A program made the translations under genes and the position numbers. Positions 1 to 5,157 of a DNA stretch of 17,168 nt are shown here, piece after piece; positions within the stretch are counted from its first letter, which is position 1, and each line of letters opens with the position of its first letter. The notes beneath the pieces are model-generated. The model made no database searches. It saw nothing but the letters and a program-made list of their open reading frames with translations, and was not told where the DNA came from. This stretch comes from a virus (lineage: Duplodnaviria; Heunggongvirae; Uroviricota; Caudoviricetes): IMG/VR virus record IMGVR_UViG_2639763151_000002; one strand, 5' to 3'.

Positions 1-471
1 CTGGCGGATGCCTTACCGGAAAGTGCAGCCCGTAAGGCACTGAGATTACCGAAGCCTGTTGTGCCGTCTGTTACCCGGGAAAGTGACCTTGTGCCTTCGG
101 TTCCTGCCACCAGCATCATCCAGGATAAGGCGAAAAAGGTGCTGGCGCTGAAAGTGGATCCGGAGTCGCCGGAGTCTTTTATGTTACGCCCAAAACGTCG
201 CCGCTGGGTTAATGAAAAGTACACGCGCTGGGTTAAGACACAGCCGTGTGCATGTTGTGGAAAGCCCGCTGATGATCCCCACCACCTGATAGGTCACGGT
301 CAGGGTGGAATGGGAACAAAAGCGCATGACCTTTTTGTGTTGCCTTTGTGCAGAAAGCATCACGACGAGCTGCATGCGGATACCGTGGCATTTGAAGAGA
401 AGTATGGCTCCCAGCTGGAGCTGATATTTCGTTTTATCGATCGTGCGCTGGCAATTGGCGTGCTGGCCTGA
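1..471 (+). CDS. DUF968-like phage protein with C-terminal HNH-type Cys/His motif (YdfU-like); 5' end lies outside the window
   Basis: The reading frame is open from base 1 with no stop; the listed ORF at 61 is only an internal GTG. The C-terminus carries a CxxC...HH...H metal-binding/HNH-like pattern (CACCGKPADDPHHLIGHG...CRKHHDELH). In lambdoid prophages such a gene typically sits just upstream of Q. Confidence 0.6.
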   Translation: MADALPESAARKALRLPKPVVPSVTRESDLVPSVPATSIIQDKAKKVLALKVDPESPESFMLRPKRRRWVNEKYTRWVKTQPCACCGKPADDPHHLIGHGQGGMGTKAHDLFVLPLCRKHHDELHADTVAFEEKYGSQLELIFRFIDRALAIGVLA

Positions 472-488
472 TTTTGTGGAGAAAGTTG

Positions 489-851
489 ATGCGTGATATG
501 TATGAAGTATTGGACCGCTGGGGAGCATGGGCTGCAGCAGAAAATAGTGGTGTGGACTGGCAGCCGATAGCGGCTGGTTTCAAGGGACTTTTACCACACG
601 GTAAAAAGTCACGTCTCCAGTGTGATGATGATGAAGGCATCATGATAGACGGTTGTGTGGCTCGGTTGCGAAAGTATAAACCAGAGGAATATGAGCTAAT
701 CATAGCTCACTTTGTTATTGGTATCTCATTACGCACTATTGCCAAGAAGAGAAGATGTTCAGATGGCACAATTAGGAAGGAATTGCAGACTGCCATGGGG
801 TTTATCAGCGGTGTAATAATAACTATAAACCCCATTATGGTAGTTAATTAA
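489..851 (+). CDS. Q: late-gene antitermination protein Q (short, phage 21/82-type; not lambda Q family)
   Basis: Protein MRDMYEVLDRWGAWAA...IAAGFKGLL...CSDG...RKELQ matches the short Q family of E. coli prophages as recalled. ATG at 489 is preceded by GGAG at 478-481; the listed ORF start at 474 is a TTG. It lies directly upstream of the lysis cassette. Confidence 0.75.
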   Translation: MRDMYEVLDRWGAWAAAENSGVDWQPIAAGFKGLLPHGKKSRLQCDDDEGIMIDGCVARLRKYKPEEYELIIAHFVIGISLRTIAKKRRCSDGTIRKELQTAMGFISGVIITINPIMVVN

Positions 852-1419
852 TGTGAATCCTATCACCAAGATAGTATAGTCCAAAAAATGTTGAAACAAG
901 CATTTGCCATGTAAGGAATAAAAAGATAATGATATAGCACCAGTTTGCTATATCATTATTCAGTATGTTTATTAGTGGTGTGATAAAAGCGTTGAAAATC
1001 ACTATGCATATGCTGAGGGCAGTTAAAAATGAAAATAACATGCACAGAAATAATCTTCTGGTAAGTTTCTCTTGAGTGTCAACAATTCTACCATTTTCTT
1101 TTGTTCGTGTAATTTTAATAAAAGGAGTGCCATTAGTTCCTATCAGAGGGTAGTCAATTTGTTCTCTGTTGAAAGTGGCTATTGCTGCAAGAGCTGCTAT
1201 ATAAAAACCTGGCAGATTTGATACAAATCCAGATATAGACTTAATAAAGCCGCCATCTTTTAGTAGGTCTGATGTAGGTATTTTAAATAAATAAAAGTAA
1301 AAAAAAGAAATCACAGCAAGCCCGGCAGGTGCATAAAAATCGTATGCGCACTTACCACTAATTCCCTTAATGAAAAGGTAACCAAACGGTCTAAATAAAT
1401 GTGAAAATATACTAATCAT
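844..1419 (-). CDS. hypothetical integral membrane protein, 191 aa, about four predicted TM helices; second gene of the AT-rich cassette
   Basis: Uninterrupted ORF with GAGG 7 nt upstream of the ATG at 1419. Hydrophobic stretches AGLAVISFFYFYLF, GFYIAALAAIATF, LFLCMLFSFLTALSICIVIF and WCYIIIFLFLTWQMLVSTFFGLYYL. No lambda counterpart. Confidence 0.7.
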   Translation of the reverse strand: MISIFSHLFRPFGYLFIKGISGKCAYDFYAPAGLAVISFFYFYLFKIPTSDLLKDGGFIKSISGFVSNLPGFYIAALAAIATFNREQIDYPLIGTNGTPFIKITRTKENGRIVDTQEKLTRRLFLCMLFSFLTALSICIVIFNAFITPLINILNNDIANWCYIIIFLFLTWQMLVSTFFGLYYLGDRIHIN

Positions 1420-1426
1420 ATTAGCC

Positions 1427-2455
1427 TCACATGACCTCGATAATCTTATTCACAAACTCCATGTTAATACTATCATAAGAATCCTTTAAGCGCGAAGAAA
1501 AACCATTTATTACACTCTTTTTGATAAATGTTTTTTCCAGCCCATCCAGCCTTACATTTGAAGTTTGAAGGTCAACTTGTCTTGTGAATCCTGTCTCTGG
1601 CTCTTTGAATTTTATTTTTATTAAGTCATAACCTCCATTTTTATCTTCTTTAAAGAAGTTTGAGACAGATTTTATCCATCCAAGGACATTGTTGGGGCCA
1701 TGGTTTGGTACTAAGCGTAAAGTACTTTCTTTAGGAATAATAGCCGCGTTAACATCTGGCGCATTAATAGTTCTGTATTCATTCTTTACCAAAACGACAT
1801 CAGAAAGTCCTTCTTTATTTATTTTATTGAACAAATCTTCATCTAACTTTCCAGATATATCAAAGACTGGCTTGTATAATACTTTTATTTTTTTCTTTGT
1901 TAAACTTGACACTTCATTTGTTAAAGTGTTACATGAAAAGATATCTTCATTATCTTTGGCTACGTTAAAGAGAACTTTATTCAGGAAACCATTTATTTTT
2001 GCTGTGGAAACTCCTGGTATTGGCATAAAACTCATGTCATACGTTCGCATATTTCCGTCTAGAGAAATAATCATATGAGAAGAAACTTCGTAACCTTCAC
2101 CTTCCTCATGTTTTGGTGATATTTCGGTGCGAACATCTGTATTAATGTTTTTTAATACAGTAGTGCTTCCATTTTTATCTACAGCATTAATTAAAAGACC
2201 AAGATGGCTGGGTTTTTTATCGGCTCTGTTTGATAAGAATATTACATCTTGTAAAGTTAAAACTAAGTCTCCTTTTTCATAACTGTGCATCATTGCTTTA
2301 CAACGTACTATTTTAGAAGCAAGTTCACGCATTGTTGGTACCGGGCAAACACAGTTCGATCTGATGCTATCATCAATTTTCTGTGTACGGTATTGTGTAT
2401 CGATCGTAATAGTATGATGAGTTATTACTCTACTAAATGCGTCCAGTGTAGCCAT
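1427..2455 (-). CDS. hypothetical soluble protein, 342 aa, Lys/Asn-rich; first gene of the AT-rich cassette
   Basis: Long ORF in about 30% GC DNA whose stop lies 7 nt upstream of the membrane gene start, giving an operon arrangement. No Walker A, HNH or other motif was recognised by eye. Confidence 0.7.
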   Translation of the reverse strand: MATLDAFSRVITHHTITIDTQYRTQKIDDSIRSNCVCPVPTMRELASKIVRCKAMMHSYEKGDLVLTLQDVIFLSNRADKKPSHLGLLINAVDKNGSTTVLKNINTDVRTEISPKHEEGEGYEVSSHMIISLDGNMRTYDMSFMPIPGVSTAKINGFLNKVLFNVAKDNEDIFSCNTLTNEVSSLTKKKIKVLYKPVFDISGKLDEDLFNKINKEGLSDVVLVKNEYRTINAPDVNAAIIPKESTLRLVPNHGPNNVLGWIKSVSNFFKEDKNGGYDLIKIKFKEPETGFTRQVDLQTSNVRLDGLEKTFIKKSVINGFSSRLKDSYDSINMEFVNKIIEVM

Positions 2456-2568
2456 TTCAAAATATCCGCTTCTTTGCTGTTTTTATATGGAGAAAGTTTA
2501 CATAACCACTAACGCGTACGCAAAAACTATTGTATCGTGTTAAGAGTGGTTACTTCGCCACACAGCTT

Positions 2569-2598
2569 AAACCCGCCGTCGAGCGGGTTTTGTCGTTT
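2569..2598 (+). terminator. candidate intrinsic terminator (tR'-like) upstream of the holin gene
   Basis: Stem AAACCCGC / GCGGGTTT at 2569-2576 and 2583-2590 with loop CGTCGA, followed by TTTTGTCGTTTC. The position between the Q region and the holin is where the Q-antiterminated tR' is expected. Confidence 0.4.
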
Positions 2599-2742
2599 CT
2601 GGGGCTGGGGATTCGTTGGTCCTGGCCTATTCCGCAGTTATCCATTGGCTCGGCTTCTTTGACGTTTCCGCTTCTGATTTGCGGTACATGATGTTCCCTC
2701 AATTTGCACCTGCTGTATCAGCGAGGTGAGAGATAACTACAA

Positions 2743-3069
2743 ATGCCTCATAACCCAAATACCTGGCTGGAGTTGGTCCAGAGCTGGTGGCGTGGAGACA
2801 CACCACTGGGCGCAGTGATTATGTCGATTGTTATGGCTGGATTGCGCATTGCCTATTTTGGCGGTGGTGGTGGGTGGAAGCGAAAAACGCTCGAGATTTT
2901 GCTCTGTGGTGCTCTGACGCTGACTTTTGCATCCGCTCTTGAGTATGTCGGATGGCCTAAATCTCTTTCTGTTGCCATTGGTGGCGGTGTTGGGCTGATT
3001 GGTGTCGATGCAATTCGTGGGGTTGCAATGCGAGTAATCGGTAACAAATTTGGTAGCTCGAAGGAGTAA
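2743..3069 (+). CDS. holin (class I-like, three predicted TM helices); not lambda S family
   Basis: 108-aa protein with three hydrophobic segments and a charged C-terminus, ending 3 nt before the endolysin R start. SD GAGGTGAGAG precedes the ATG. Confidence 0.7.
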   Translation: MPHNPNTWLELVQSWWRGDTPLGAVIMSIVMAGLRIAYFGGGGGWKRKTLEILLCGALTLTFASALEYVGWPKSLSVAIGGGVGLIGVDAIRGVAMRVIGNKFGSSKE

Positions 3070-3072
3070 TTT

Positions 3073-3549
3073 ATGCAGGCACTAAATTCCCAGCGTAAAG
3101 CTTTCCTCGATATGGTGGCATGGTCAGAAGGAACGGATAACGGACGGCAGAAAACCAGAAATCATGGTTATGACGTCATTGTAGGCGGAGAGCTATTTAC
3201 TGATTACTCCGATCATCCTCGCAAACTTGTCACACTAAACCCAAAACTAAAATCAACAGCCGCCGGACGTTATCAGCTTCTTTCACGCTGGTGGGATGCT
3301 TATCGTAAGCAGCTTGCTCTGAAAGACTTCTCTCCGAAAAGCCAGGACGCTGTGGCATTGCAGCAGATTAAGGAGCGTGGCGCTTTACCGATGATTGATC
3401 GCGGTGATATTCGTCAGGCAATTGACCGTTGCAGCAATATCTGGGCTTCACTGCCGGGCGCTGGTTATGGTCAGTTCGAGCATAAGGCTGACAGCCTGAT
3501 TGCAAAATTCAAAGAAGCAGGCGGAACGGTCAGAGAGATTGAGGTATGA
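3073..3549 (+). CDS. R: endolysin R (lytic transglycosylase)
   Basis: 158 aa, near-identical to lambda R as recalled ([56 protein letters not shown]...). Confidence 0.95.
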
Positions 3550-4007
3550 GCAGAGTAACCGCGATTATCTCCGCTCTGGTTATCTGCATCATCGTCTGCT
3601 TGTCATGGGCTGTTAATCATTACCGCGATAACGCCATTACCTACAAAGCCCAGCGCGACAAAAATGCCAGAGAACTGAAGCTGGCGAACTCGACAATTAC
3701 TGACATGCAGGTGCGCCAGCGTGATGTTGCTGCGCTCGATGCAAAATACACGAAGGAGTTAGCTGATGCGAAAGCTGAAAATGATGCTCTGCGTGATGAT
3801 GTTGCCGCTGGTCGTCGTCGGTTGCACATCAAAGCAGTCTGTCAGTCAGTGCGTGAAGCCACCACCGCCTCCGGCATGGATAATGCAGCCTCCCCCCGAC
3901 TGGCAGACACCGCTGAACGGGATTATTTCACCCTCAGAGAGAGGCTGATCACTATGCAAAAACAACTGGAAGGAACCCAGAAGTATATTAATGAGCAGTG
4001 CAGATAG
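3546..4007 (+). CDS. Rz: Rz inner-membrane spanin (i-spanin)
   Basis: 153 aa, near-identical to lambda Rz as recalled; the ATGA start/stop overlaps the end of R. Confidence 0.95.
3766..3948 (+). CDS. Rz1: Rz1 outer-membrane lipoprotein spanin (o-spanin), embedded in Rz in the +1 frame
   Basis: 60 aa with lipobox LVVVGC and proline-rich stretch [15 protein letters not shown], matching lambda Rz1 as recalled. Confidence 0.9.
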
Positions 4008-4038: not shown

Positions 4039-4332
4039 TTATTGTGAGCAATACACACGCGCTTCCAGTGGAGTATAAATGCCTAAAGTAATAAAACCGA
4101 GAAATCCATTTACGAATGTTTGCTGGGTTTCTGTTTTAACAACATTTTCTGCGCCGCCACAAATTTTGGCTGCATCGACAGTTTTCTTCTGCCCAATTCC
4201 AGAGACGAAGAAATGGTGGGTGATGGTTTCCTTTGGTGTTACTGCTGCCGGTTTGTTTTGAACAGTAAACGTCTGTTGGGCACATCCTGTAATAAGCAGG
4301 GCCAGCGCAGTAGCGAGTAGCATTTTTTTCAT
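4039..4332 (-). CDS. bor: Bor lipoprotein (serum-resistance moron)
   Basis: 97 aa MKKMLLATALALLITGCAQQTFTVQNKPAAV..., essentially identical to lambda Bor as recalled. Confidence 0.95.
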   Translation of the reverse strand: MKKMLLATALALLITGCAQQTFTVQNKPAAVTPKETITHHFFVSGIGQKKTVDAAKICGGAENVVKTETQQTFVNGFLGFITLGIYTPLEARVYCSQ

Positions 4333-4623
4333 GGTGTTATTCCCGATGCTTTTTAAAGTTCGCAGAATCGTATGTGTAGAAAATTAAACAAACCCTAAAC
4401 AATGAGTTGAAATCTCATATTGTTAATATTTATTAATGTATGTCAGATGCGAAGGATCGTCACTGTATTCCCGGATTAACTATGTCCGCAGCCCTGACAG
4501 GGAAACTCCTCTGCGGGAGTGTCCGGGAATAATTAATAACGATGCACACAGGGTTTAGCGCTTACACGTATTGCATTATGCCAACGCCCCGGTGCTGACA
4601 CGGAAGAAACCGGACGTTATGAT

Positions 4624-5157
4624 TTAGCGTGGAAAGATTTGTGTAGTGTTCTGAATGCTCTCAGTAAATAGTAATGAATTATCAAAGGCATAGTAATATC
4701 TTTTATGTTCGTGGATATTTGTAACCCATCGGAAAACTCCTGCTTTAGCAAGATTTTCCCTGTATTGCTGAAATGTGATTTCTCTTGATTTCAACCTATC
4801 ATAGGACGTTTCTATAAGATGCGTATTTCTTGAGAATTTAACATTTACAACCTTTTTAAGTCCTTTTATTAACACAGTGTTATCGTTTTCTAACACAATG
4901 TGAATATTATCTGTGGCTAGATAGTAAATATAATGTGAGACATTGTGACGTTTTAGTTCAGAATAAAACAATTCACAGTTTAAATCTTTTCGCACTTGAT
5001 CGAATATTTCTTTAAAAATGGCAACCTGAGCCATTGGTAAAACCTTCCATGTGATACGAGGGCGCGTAGTTTGCATTATCGTTTTTATCGTTTCAATCTG
5101 GTCTGACCTCTTTGTGTTTTGTTGATGATTTATGTCAAATATTAGGAATGTTTTCAA
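4624..5157 (-). CDS. hypothetical protein, homolog of lambda right-end ORF lambdap78 (annotated elsewhere as putative envelope protein)
   Basis: 177-aa ORF in AT-rich DNA at the same distance from cosN as lambdap78, as recalled. Confidence 0.65.

Follow-up and report, generated by a model that had tools for sequence, protein, structure and literature searches.

Linked variation of the antiterminator Q 3′ end and a candidate defence cassette in a cargo hotspot of lambda-like prophages

Introduction

Lambdoid phages carry cargo genes after the gene of the antiterminator Q, known cases including nmpC, which follows quuD in DLP12, lc in PA-2 and stx in the Stx phages. Comparable hotspots, dedicated to defence, reportedly exist in P2 and P4 prophages and satellites, and are said to have been described by Rousset et al. 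in 2022. Two further kinds of known arrangement are relevant to the ends of such cargo. Bidirectional intrinsic terminators sit between convergent bacterial genes, and RNA structure or antisense transcription 3′ of a phage regulatory gene controls its expression in phage lambda, through sib retroregulation and the antisense promoter paQ, respectively.

Here, we analysed a 17,168-nucleotide stretch of DNA from a member of the Caudoviricetes (IMG/VR record IMGVR_UViG_2639763151_000002; hereafter the window), in which a Q gene converges with a cassette of two genes encoded on the opposite strand. Like the lambdoid moron slot, this locus harbours accessory genes between the antiterminator and the lysis genes, with variable content and conserved flanks; unlike it, the left recombination edge falls inside the Q reading frame. 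Cargo of the stx type depends on Q and is carried by the plus strand, beyond the late promoter and terminator, whereas the cassette of the window lies before a promoter-like element and on the opposite strand. With the P2/P4 hotspots, the locus shares conserved flanks around interchangeable anti-phage cassettes, its slot holding KwaB-like, TIR and other defence-type genes, but both the phage family and the slot are different. As for sib and paQ, the likeness is an analogy only, to be taken as a lead. The locus is a variation on known phenomena, i.e. phage mosaicism, cargo hotspots and terminators overlapping stop codons.

The C-terminus of Q deserves particular attention in this context. The six C-terminal residues of Q21 touch RNA polymerase (bioRxiv 10.1101/651190), so that C-termini can matter in this family. 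Q21 (PDB 6P18/6JNX) belongs to the same Pfam family (PF06530) as the Q protein of the window, the two aligning weakly over the N-terminal two thirds. However, Q21 comprises 162 aa versus 120 aa for the Q protein of the window, in which the C-terminal region of Q21 has no detectable counterpart.

Gene content of the window

The first 3 kb of the window contain, in order, the 3′ end of a DUF968 gene (61-471, plus strand) located upstream of Q, the Q gene itself (489..851, plus strand; 120 aa, Q21 family), two minus-strand open reading frames (ORFs), a terminator-like hairpin (2569-2590) lying in a GC-normal segment after both of these ORFs, and a gene for a lambda-family holin (2743-3069). The late genes 3′ of the holin gene encode lysozyme, Rz, Bor, DUF1398, Nu1, gpA, portal, protease, capsid E and tail tube proteins, and all late-gene ORFs of the window are open. 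The first 3.1 kb of the window are 100% identical in Escherichia coli 04-00955 (NZ_CP035498), with genes annotated alike and Q designated as ‘antiterminator Q family protein’. The window represents the late-control region of a lambda-like prophage of E. coli, apparently an intact one.

The two minus-strand ORFs constitute the cassette studied here. The first encodes a 191-aa membrane protein (844..1419, minus strand) that matches PDC-M53B over its full length (PADLOC PDLC04699, profile positions 2-186 of 188, 1.7e-54), which indicates that the 3′ end of this gene at 844 is native; hydrophobic stretches (KD of at least 1.6) are located at residues 121-155 and 157-182. The second encodes a 342-aa protein (1427..2455, minus strand) similar to PDC-M53A (PADLOC PDC-M53A models, 1.3e-31 to 7e-14). 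The two matching genes are adjacent, on the same strand and 7 bp apart, and the cassette can be described as a two-gene representative of PDC-M53, a candidate defence system of PADLOC. Pfam and NCBIfam returned no family for either cassette protein, and our search of the literature on PDC-M53 and on the post-Q hotspot retrieved nothing specific, PDC-M53 appearing only as a name listed in one paper; nor did it bring up any hotspot bounded within the coding sequence of a regulator. Upstream of the M53A gene, an AT-rich (29% GC) cassette-specific leader (2456..2508) forms the right end of the variable block and is presumably the promoter region of the cassette; a consensus promoter scan pinned down neither a cassette promoter nor a late promoter.

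Two observations concern the late operon further downstream. The bor lipoprotein gene (4039-4332, minus strand) is located downstream of the Rz gene and followed by the DUF1398 gene (4624-5157, minus strand), a second AT-rich minus-strand gene (29-36% GC); the region 4039-5157 looks like another cargo position. In addition, a 60-aa ORF (3766-3948) lies in another frame within Rz and displays a lipoprotein-type signal (LVVVGC) and a proline-rich tail; it corresponds to the expected embedded Rz1 spanin partner.

A variable-cargo hotspot between Q and a conserved element

With a 3.1-kb query, the flanks of the cassette were matched in 4279 of 5426 E. coli genomes, in which the content of the slot differs. 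We retrieved at least 10 different contents between Q and position 2509 or thereabouts, two cassette-free states among them: hypothetical gene pairs (in several versions), TIGR04255, KwaB-like, TIR and WYL proteins, an SDH-type protease, a methyltransferase and an OmpC-like porin. With few exceptions, the cassettes are encoded on the minus strand. The segment between Q and 2509 is a variable-cargo hotspot with conserved flanks, and a convenient place to mine for candidate defence genes. In H117 (NZ_CM187536) and in K-12-type records, a porin gene of the OmpC/NmpC type occupies the slot directly after quuD; hence, the hotspot includes the classical nmpC location of DLP12.

The right edge of the hotspot is sharp: loci without a cassette, like those with a different one, resemble the window only from about 2509 onwards. 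There starts a conserved element (2509..2600, plus strand; aligned across 13 loci) composed of a palindrome GCGTACGC (2514-2521), a GTTAAGAGTGGTTAC core and the hairpin 2569-2590, followed by a T-run. In cassette-free phages, this element follows Q directly, starting for example 13 bp after the Q stop in Combat2C1 (L011). Its palindrome varies with the Q allele class (ACGCGTACGC for the MRDMYEV type, GCGGTCCGC for the MRDIQ type found in L006, L008 and L009, and TGTTATAACA for a third type, found in L010), and the GTTAAGAGTGGTTACTTCGCC that comes after the palindrome is constant across these classes, as is the terminator hairpin. A search of Rfam (E of at most 1) over 400-3200 detected no RNA family. 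Considering its position and the covariation of its palindrome with Q, we propose 2509-2600 as a candidate allele-specific Q-binding site/late promoter/tR′.

Two points relate to the surroundings of this element. Between the element and the holin gene, L011 carries genes for an ADP-ribosyltransferase and an AB5-toxin binding subunit (L011 2079-3365); the stx genes of Stx phages sit at this same position. Furthermore, we considered whether a native Q end survives to the right of the cassette (2456-2506), an idea that arose from a query of concatenated flanks that aligned as one piece in cassette-free genomes. This candidate was rejected: true similarity begins only at about 2507, and the resemblance of the TATATG...CATAA type near the right end of the cassette is out of register.

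Breakpoints within the Q gene

The left edge of the hotspot was located by a megablast of window positions 474-900 against 5426 complete E. coli genomes, which matched 746 records. Fifteen of them span the whole query with at least 99% identity, and about 730 of the 746 lose the match at query positions 330-332, i.e. at 803-805 of the window. Indeed, every Q allele associated with a different cassette loses DNA similarity at this very place, and the Q body shared at the DNA level with alleles having other cassettes or none corresponds to 489..805 (plus strand). The first-pass annotation had suggested that the cassette replaced the native 3′ end of Q. Alignment to cassette-free homologues, for which DNA similarity also ends at 803-805, agrees with this suggestion, as does the closest of these homologues (L011): its Q differs at four of residues 1-105 and ends with other residues, namely ...GFIDGCICLILS (GCICLILS) instead of the ...GFISGVIITINPIMVVN of the window. 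A second cassette-free state, in ZH063 (L006), is associated with a 126-aa Q of a different allele class.

The two parts of Q delimited in this way have discordant relationships. Over codons 1-105 (ungapped), the Q body of the window is 93% identical to that of H22, 90% to that of OZ038590 and 84% to that of the cassette-free L011, but only 77-83% identical to alleles accompanied by the same (M53) cassette. Codons 106-113 exhibit the opposite pattern, being closest to M53-linked alleles. This discordance indicates that a crossover near 804-806 joined the Q body of one lineage to the tail and cassette of another. The left edge of the exchangeable block thus falls inside Q, at about nt 804-806 (codon 106), and each cassette brings its own version of the last codons of Q. 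This provides a base-resolution view of the limits of a lambdoid cargo hotspot, with one edge inside the coding sequence of the regulator of lysis timing and the other a few bases before the candidate DNA target of Q.

A different extent of exchange is visible in E. coli TW10828 (L002). When compared with window positions 1-3100, its backbone is 97-99% identical on both sides, but between the Q start and about 2506 identity is no more than 62-77%. Q and the cassette were exchanged there as a unit, and the left crossover can thus fall at the Q start too. The M53B annotated in this strain is C-terminally shortened (175 aa).

The Q frame runs from ATG at 489 to AAT at 846-848 and TAA at 849-851, and TTA at 844-846 provides, as TAA on the other strand, the stop of the minus-strand ORF. 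Accordingly, Q and the 191-aa gene converge, their ORFs overlapping by 8 bp, and both stop codons are read directly in TTAATTAA (844..851). The overlap of these stops in a palindrome had been noticed beforehand, with coordinates that proved exact. The exact palindrome is not kept in relatives, in which it is replaced by TTAATTGA, TTAGTTGA, CTAATTAA or TTAGTTAA, and it looks incidental, as two opposite-strand stop codons in AT-rich DNA. The stops overlap by 8 bp in the window, L018 and L032-34, and by 4 bp in L013, L014 and L016, and are separated by a gap of 3-4 bp in L019, L021, L040 and L060. As such a close abutment recurs in diverged relatives, the arrangement is more than a one-off.

A recent insertion of an AT-rich cassette could be imagined to have severed the end of Q, leaving an arbitrary read-through, a meaningless tail and possibly an impaired antiterminator. 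The end of similarity at 803-805 and the different Q end of a cassette-free relative are compatible with such an event, and so is the cassette-like composition of the tail (28-33% GC). Indeed, GC content is 28% at 810-848, compared with 45.7% in the Q body and 33% in the cassette, so that the AT-richness of the tail noted in the first-pass annotation is correct as far as composition is concerned. However, the native Q tail of the cassette-free L011 is equally AT-rich (30% GC), and the 39-nt segment of the Q body that is poorest in GC has 30.8%. We therefore rejected composition as a sign of cassette origin.

The Q protein and its C-terminal tail

The Q protein matches Pfam PF06530 with 153.7 bits (cut-off 26; 2.4e-45), residues 1-113 lying on profile positions 1-113 of 118, and its gene occupies the position expected from its neighbours listed above, with DUF968 upstream and holin, lysozyme and Rz downstream. 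The match to the Q21 chains 6P18/6JNX is weak (phmmer, E 0.005, residues 8-86), and a Foldseek comparison of its AF2 model with the PDB gave no significant match. In this model, built from a 78-sequence alignment and of moderate quality (pLDDT 74 overall), the last helix spans residues 92-113 (pLDDT about 90) and is followed by a break at N114/P115.

A homologue search of a large protein collection returned 989 sequences, and tails were tabulated for the best 120. Residue G108, or its equivalent, is found in 120 of these 120, and the five residues after it are for the most part hydrophobic (G-[VCIM]-[LIV]-x-[MILT]-[LI]). Among the same best 120 of 989, several abundant clusters stop at exactly 113 aa, and the tails beyond residue 113 comprise 0-9 freely varying residues. 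Such a free variation of subfamily tails, in length and in sequence, argues against a conserved contact similar to that of Q21. Natural 113-aa forms are found in otherwise normal prophages, e.g. C9. In the window, no part of the Q core (residues 1-113) is missing: ISGVIITI (106-113) is a normal core end and completes the last helix, and NPIMVVN (114-120) is the sole appendage, specific to a lineage. The cassette-linked tail (806..848, plus strand) comprises both parts, codons 106-113 and codons 114-120, as judged from the tails that differ by cassette and from the break in the AF2 model.

These results run against a simple insertion severing the native Q end. Residues 106-113 keep the helix pattern of the family, including the near-invariant G108, and Q is longer than its native form (120 aa in the window versus 115 aa in L011), in a family in which natural 113-aa forms exist. 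Moreover, the tail is homologous over lineages that are 62-83% identical and belong to three genera, and its hairpin is maintained by compensatory changes (see below). The insertion scenario is very improbable in our view, being largely refuted by the core pattern, the tail homology and the compensatory pairs. Of the replacement proposed in the first-pass annotation, there thus remains a tail that moves with the cassette and differs from the cassette-free form, and what falls is its disruptive character, there being no disruptive insertion, no random reading into cassette DNA and no truncation.

Q probably remains an active antiterminator, as suggested by its complete core, the natural 113-aa forms, its cross-genus persistence at 62-83% DNA identity and the intact late genes. 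A loss of antitermination is unlikely because the tail is old and conserved across prophages of E. coli, Salmonella and Enterobacter with intact late genes. Residues after Pro115 are essentially unconstrained across relatives, and residues 114-120 would represent tolerated baggage. Variation of Q length and tail within this family should not be taken as pseudogenization, and the tail can be used as a marker of which cassette sits downstream; nothing is altered here in the current knowledge of antitermination.

Linkage of the tail to the M53 cassette and its possible origin

Tails of the (I/L)(N/K)P type are found in a minority of the best 120 of 989 homologues, more than 100 of which have other tails without this motif. 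Every K/N-P tail for which the genomic context was fetched adjoins M53 genes of 191 aa and 340/342 aa, in Enterobacter soli (L013), Salmonella (L014, L015), other assemblies (L016-L021) and many IMG/VR and metagenome contigs. These M53 lineages were gathered by alignment-based scans of viral and metagenomic sequences, a single-protein scan of genome contigs yielding two loci. Conversely, no ...I(N/K)P... tail was found in phages devoid of M53 among the contexts fetched. The genes that surround the K/N-P/M53 loci vary both upstream (DUF968, Toprim/AAA_25 or YbcO) and downstream (different holin families or a methyltransferase), and the tail is homologous across these lineages. These comparisons show that the 3′ end of Q moves with the M53 cassette.

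Other cassettes (H22, C9, OZ038590, SDH and TIR) display a compact GC-rich hairpin immediately 3′ of the Q stop. No compact hairpin was found after the Q stop in cassette-free loci, and likewise none downstream of the Q stop of the window. We compared three sets of M53 loci in one alignment, with hairpins folded separately:

— L051 is an outgroup, with an M53B only 58% identical to that of the window and a normal Q end (...GCLSMLDVN). Its Q gene is followed by AAAGCCCG-GUGA-CGGGCUUU with A/T-rich flanks, then by the M53B stop, and this hairpin has the features of a compact bidirectional terminator.

— In the KP lineage (TW10828-type, L019/L060, L038, L039 and L049), Q codon 113 abuts the 5′ arm of the hairpin, read as AAG CCC (Lys-Pro); the loop contains the Q stop, and the 3′ arm that of M53B.

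— In the NP lineage (the window, L013, L014, L016, L018, L021, L032, L034 and L063), the 3′ arm has decayed, while the other arm is kept as AAACCCC or AAATCCC (Asn-Pro).

The equivalence of AAGCCC and AAACCCC relies on a short alignment, in which both occupy the same codon position between homologous flanks. One M53 cassette with an overlapping Q stop (L050) has no evident hairpin.

This series suggests how the tail might have arisen. In the M53 family, the last codons of Q would derive from the 3′ hairpin of the cassette. In a first step, represented by the KP lineage, Q would have lost its own end, read into the 5′ arm of the terminator and stopped in the loop. In a second step, represented by the NP lineage, the 3′ arm would have decayed, the retained arm AUAAACCCC pairing instead with the upstream codons AUGGGGUUUAU of Q (M103-I106), and Q would read on to the M53B stop region, hence the 8-bp overlap. 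We assign a probability of about 0.62 to this joint reading, i.e. a post-Q hotspot, a cassette-borne Q tail issued from an M53 terminator arm, and an arm re-paired with Q codons. If so, the locus offers a worked example of a protein C-terminus acquired from the terminator arm of a neighbour and later re-paired with the gene's own codons.

Alternatively, the ...INPxxxx tail could be the native C-terminus of a distinct Q allele, older than the cassette and unrelated to it, which would fit with its age and conservation across genera and with the TW10828 comparison, where Q and cassette move as one block. Yet, K/N-P tails were retrieved beside M53 only (among the contexts fetched), with over 100 of the 120 homologues having other tails without the motif; the codons for K-P/N-P line up with the 5′ arm that belongs, in L051, to a stand-alone terminator; and the Q body of the window groups with alleles having other tails. 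Hence, we consider this native origin extremely improbable.

The hairpin within the Q coding sequence

In the window, RNAfold predicts a long hairpin (788..845, plus strand), conserved among relatives, with a 5′ arm at 788-805, a loop at 806-824 and a 3′ arm at 825-834 and 838-845. Codons 101-106, which make up the 5′ arm GACUGCCAUGGGGUUUAU, are paired in this fold with codons 113-119 (825-834 and 838-845); the AAACCCC that encodes N-P thereby faces the GGGGTTT of Q itself (G104-F105). On the plus strand, the hairpin reaches -24.1 kcal/mol (z -3.74; one of 200 shuffles as good), and on the minus strand -18.4 kcal/mol (z -2.05). Such a stable stem-loop is one of the hallmarks of intrinsic terminators. 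No U-run was found 3′ of the stem on either strand, the plus strand continuing with AAUUAAUGUG and the minus strand with UGCAAUUCCUUCC, and a consensus scan did not flag the hairpin, which is therefore not a canonical intrinsic terminator.

Covariation was evaluated on an alignment of nine distinct, related NP junctions, over a 14-pair helix. In this helix, 88% of the cells are paired, versus 26-50% once the 3′ partner has been shifted by 1-3 columns, and none of 500 shuffles matched the observed covariation score or percentage paired. Two pairs only covary, both at synonymous or conservative sites: pair 13-53 (AU/UA/CG), in which codon 103 begins with A, U or C opposite U, A or G, respectively, and pair 18-48 (GC/AU), in which the Gly104 codon ends with G or A opposite C or U. 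Pairing is kept in the nine lineages despite a divergence of about 20-25% of the surrounding DNA. L063 retains AACCCCAT / AACCCCAU in another reading frame (its Q ending in ...LTP), which points to a constraint on the nucleotides and not on Asn-Pro. A weak strand bias (8 G-U cells versus 3 A-C cells in the helix) hints slightly at a role for the plus-strand RNA.

The inverted repeat (788-805 / 825-845) might nonetheless be a mutational by-product devoid of RNA function, generated by inverted duplication or by template-switch correction of a quasipalindrome at the recombination joint, with the cassette-linked tail as neutral baggage. Template switching could yield matched changes without selection on RNA, and both covarying positions are, as mentioned, synonymous or conservative; the missing U-run on either strand, the unconstrained residues beyond Pro115 and L050, which manages without the hairpin, are also in line with this explanation. 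It accounts poorly for a pairing maintained in nine lineages at such a divergence, for a hairpin located where every other cassette has a compact one, and for the motif kept by L063 in another frame. On balance, we consider it unlikely.

Under the preferred reading, in which the retained arm has re-paired with Q codons, the hairpin would form in RNA and probably serve 3′-end formation, stabilization or insulation of both convergent transcripts. Since it is placed where other cassettes carry a standard hairpin, the same purpose is the most economical reading, although it may instead block exonucleases or be a site of processing, or have no action. It resembles bidirectional terminators in lying at a junction of convergent ORFs, and the L051, H22, C9, OZ, SDH and TIR loci exhibit their standard form, with a compact GC stem and A/T-rich flanks. 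The hairpin of the window differs from these by its 19-nt loop, its location wholly inside the Q coding sequence, the lack of a U-run and the fact that one arm is an essential, conserved part of Q.

By analogy with sib and paQ, one may speculate that the hairpin is a regulatory coupler between the defence cargo and the moment of the lysis switch, setting the extent of antisense read-through both ways; we view this as improbable. If true, it would set how far cassette antisense transcripts reach into Q in the lysogen, and how far early lytic antisense transcripts reach into the defence cassette. More broadly, each cassette of the hotspot would then tune the antiterminator through its own Q tail.

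Finally, a second hairpin (925..960), with a 15-bp stem and terminator-like on both strands, lies within the M53B coding sequence (codons NDIANWCYII). On the minus strand, it is followed by a U-run, about 25 codons before the M53B stop. Eight of eight sequences from the NP lineage possess it, and one of its pairs has changed in a compensatory manner, being T-A in the window and C-G in the others. It is absent from the KP lineage, L051 and L038; KP cassettes retain the compact intergenic hairpin.
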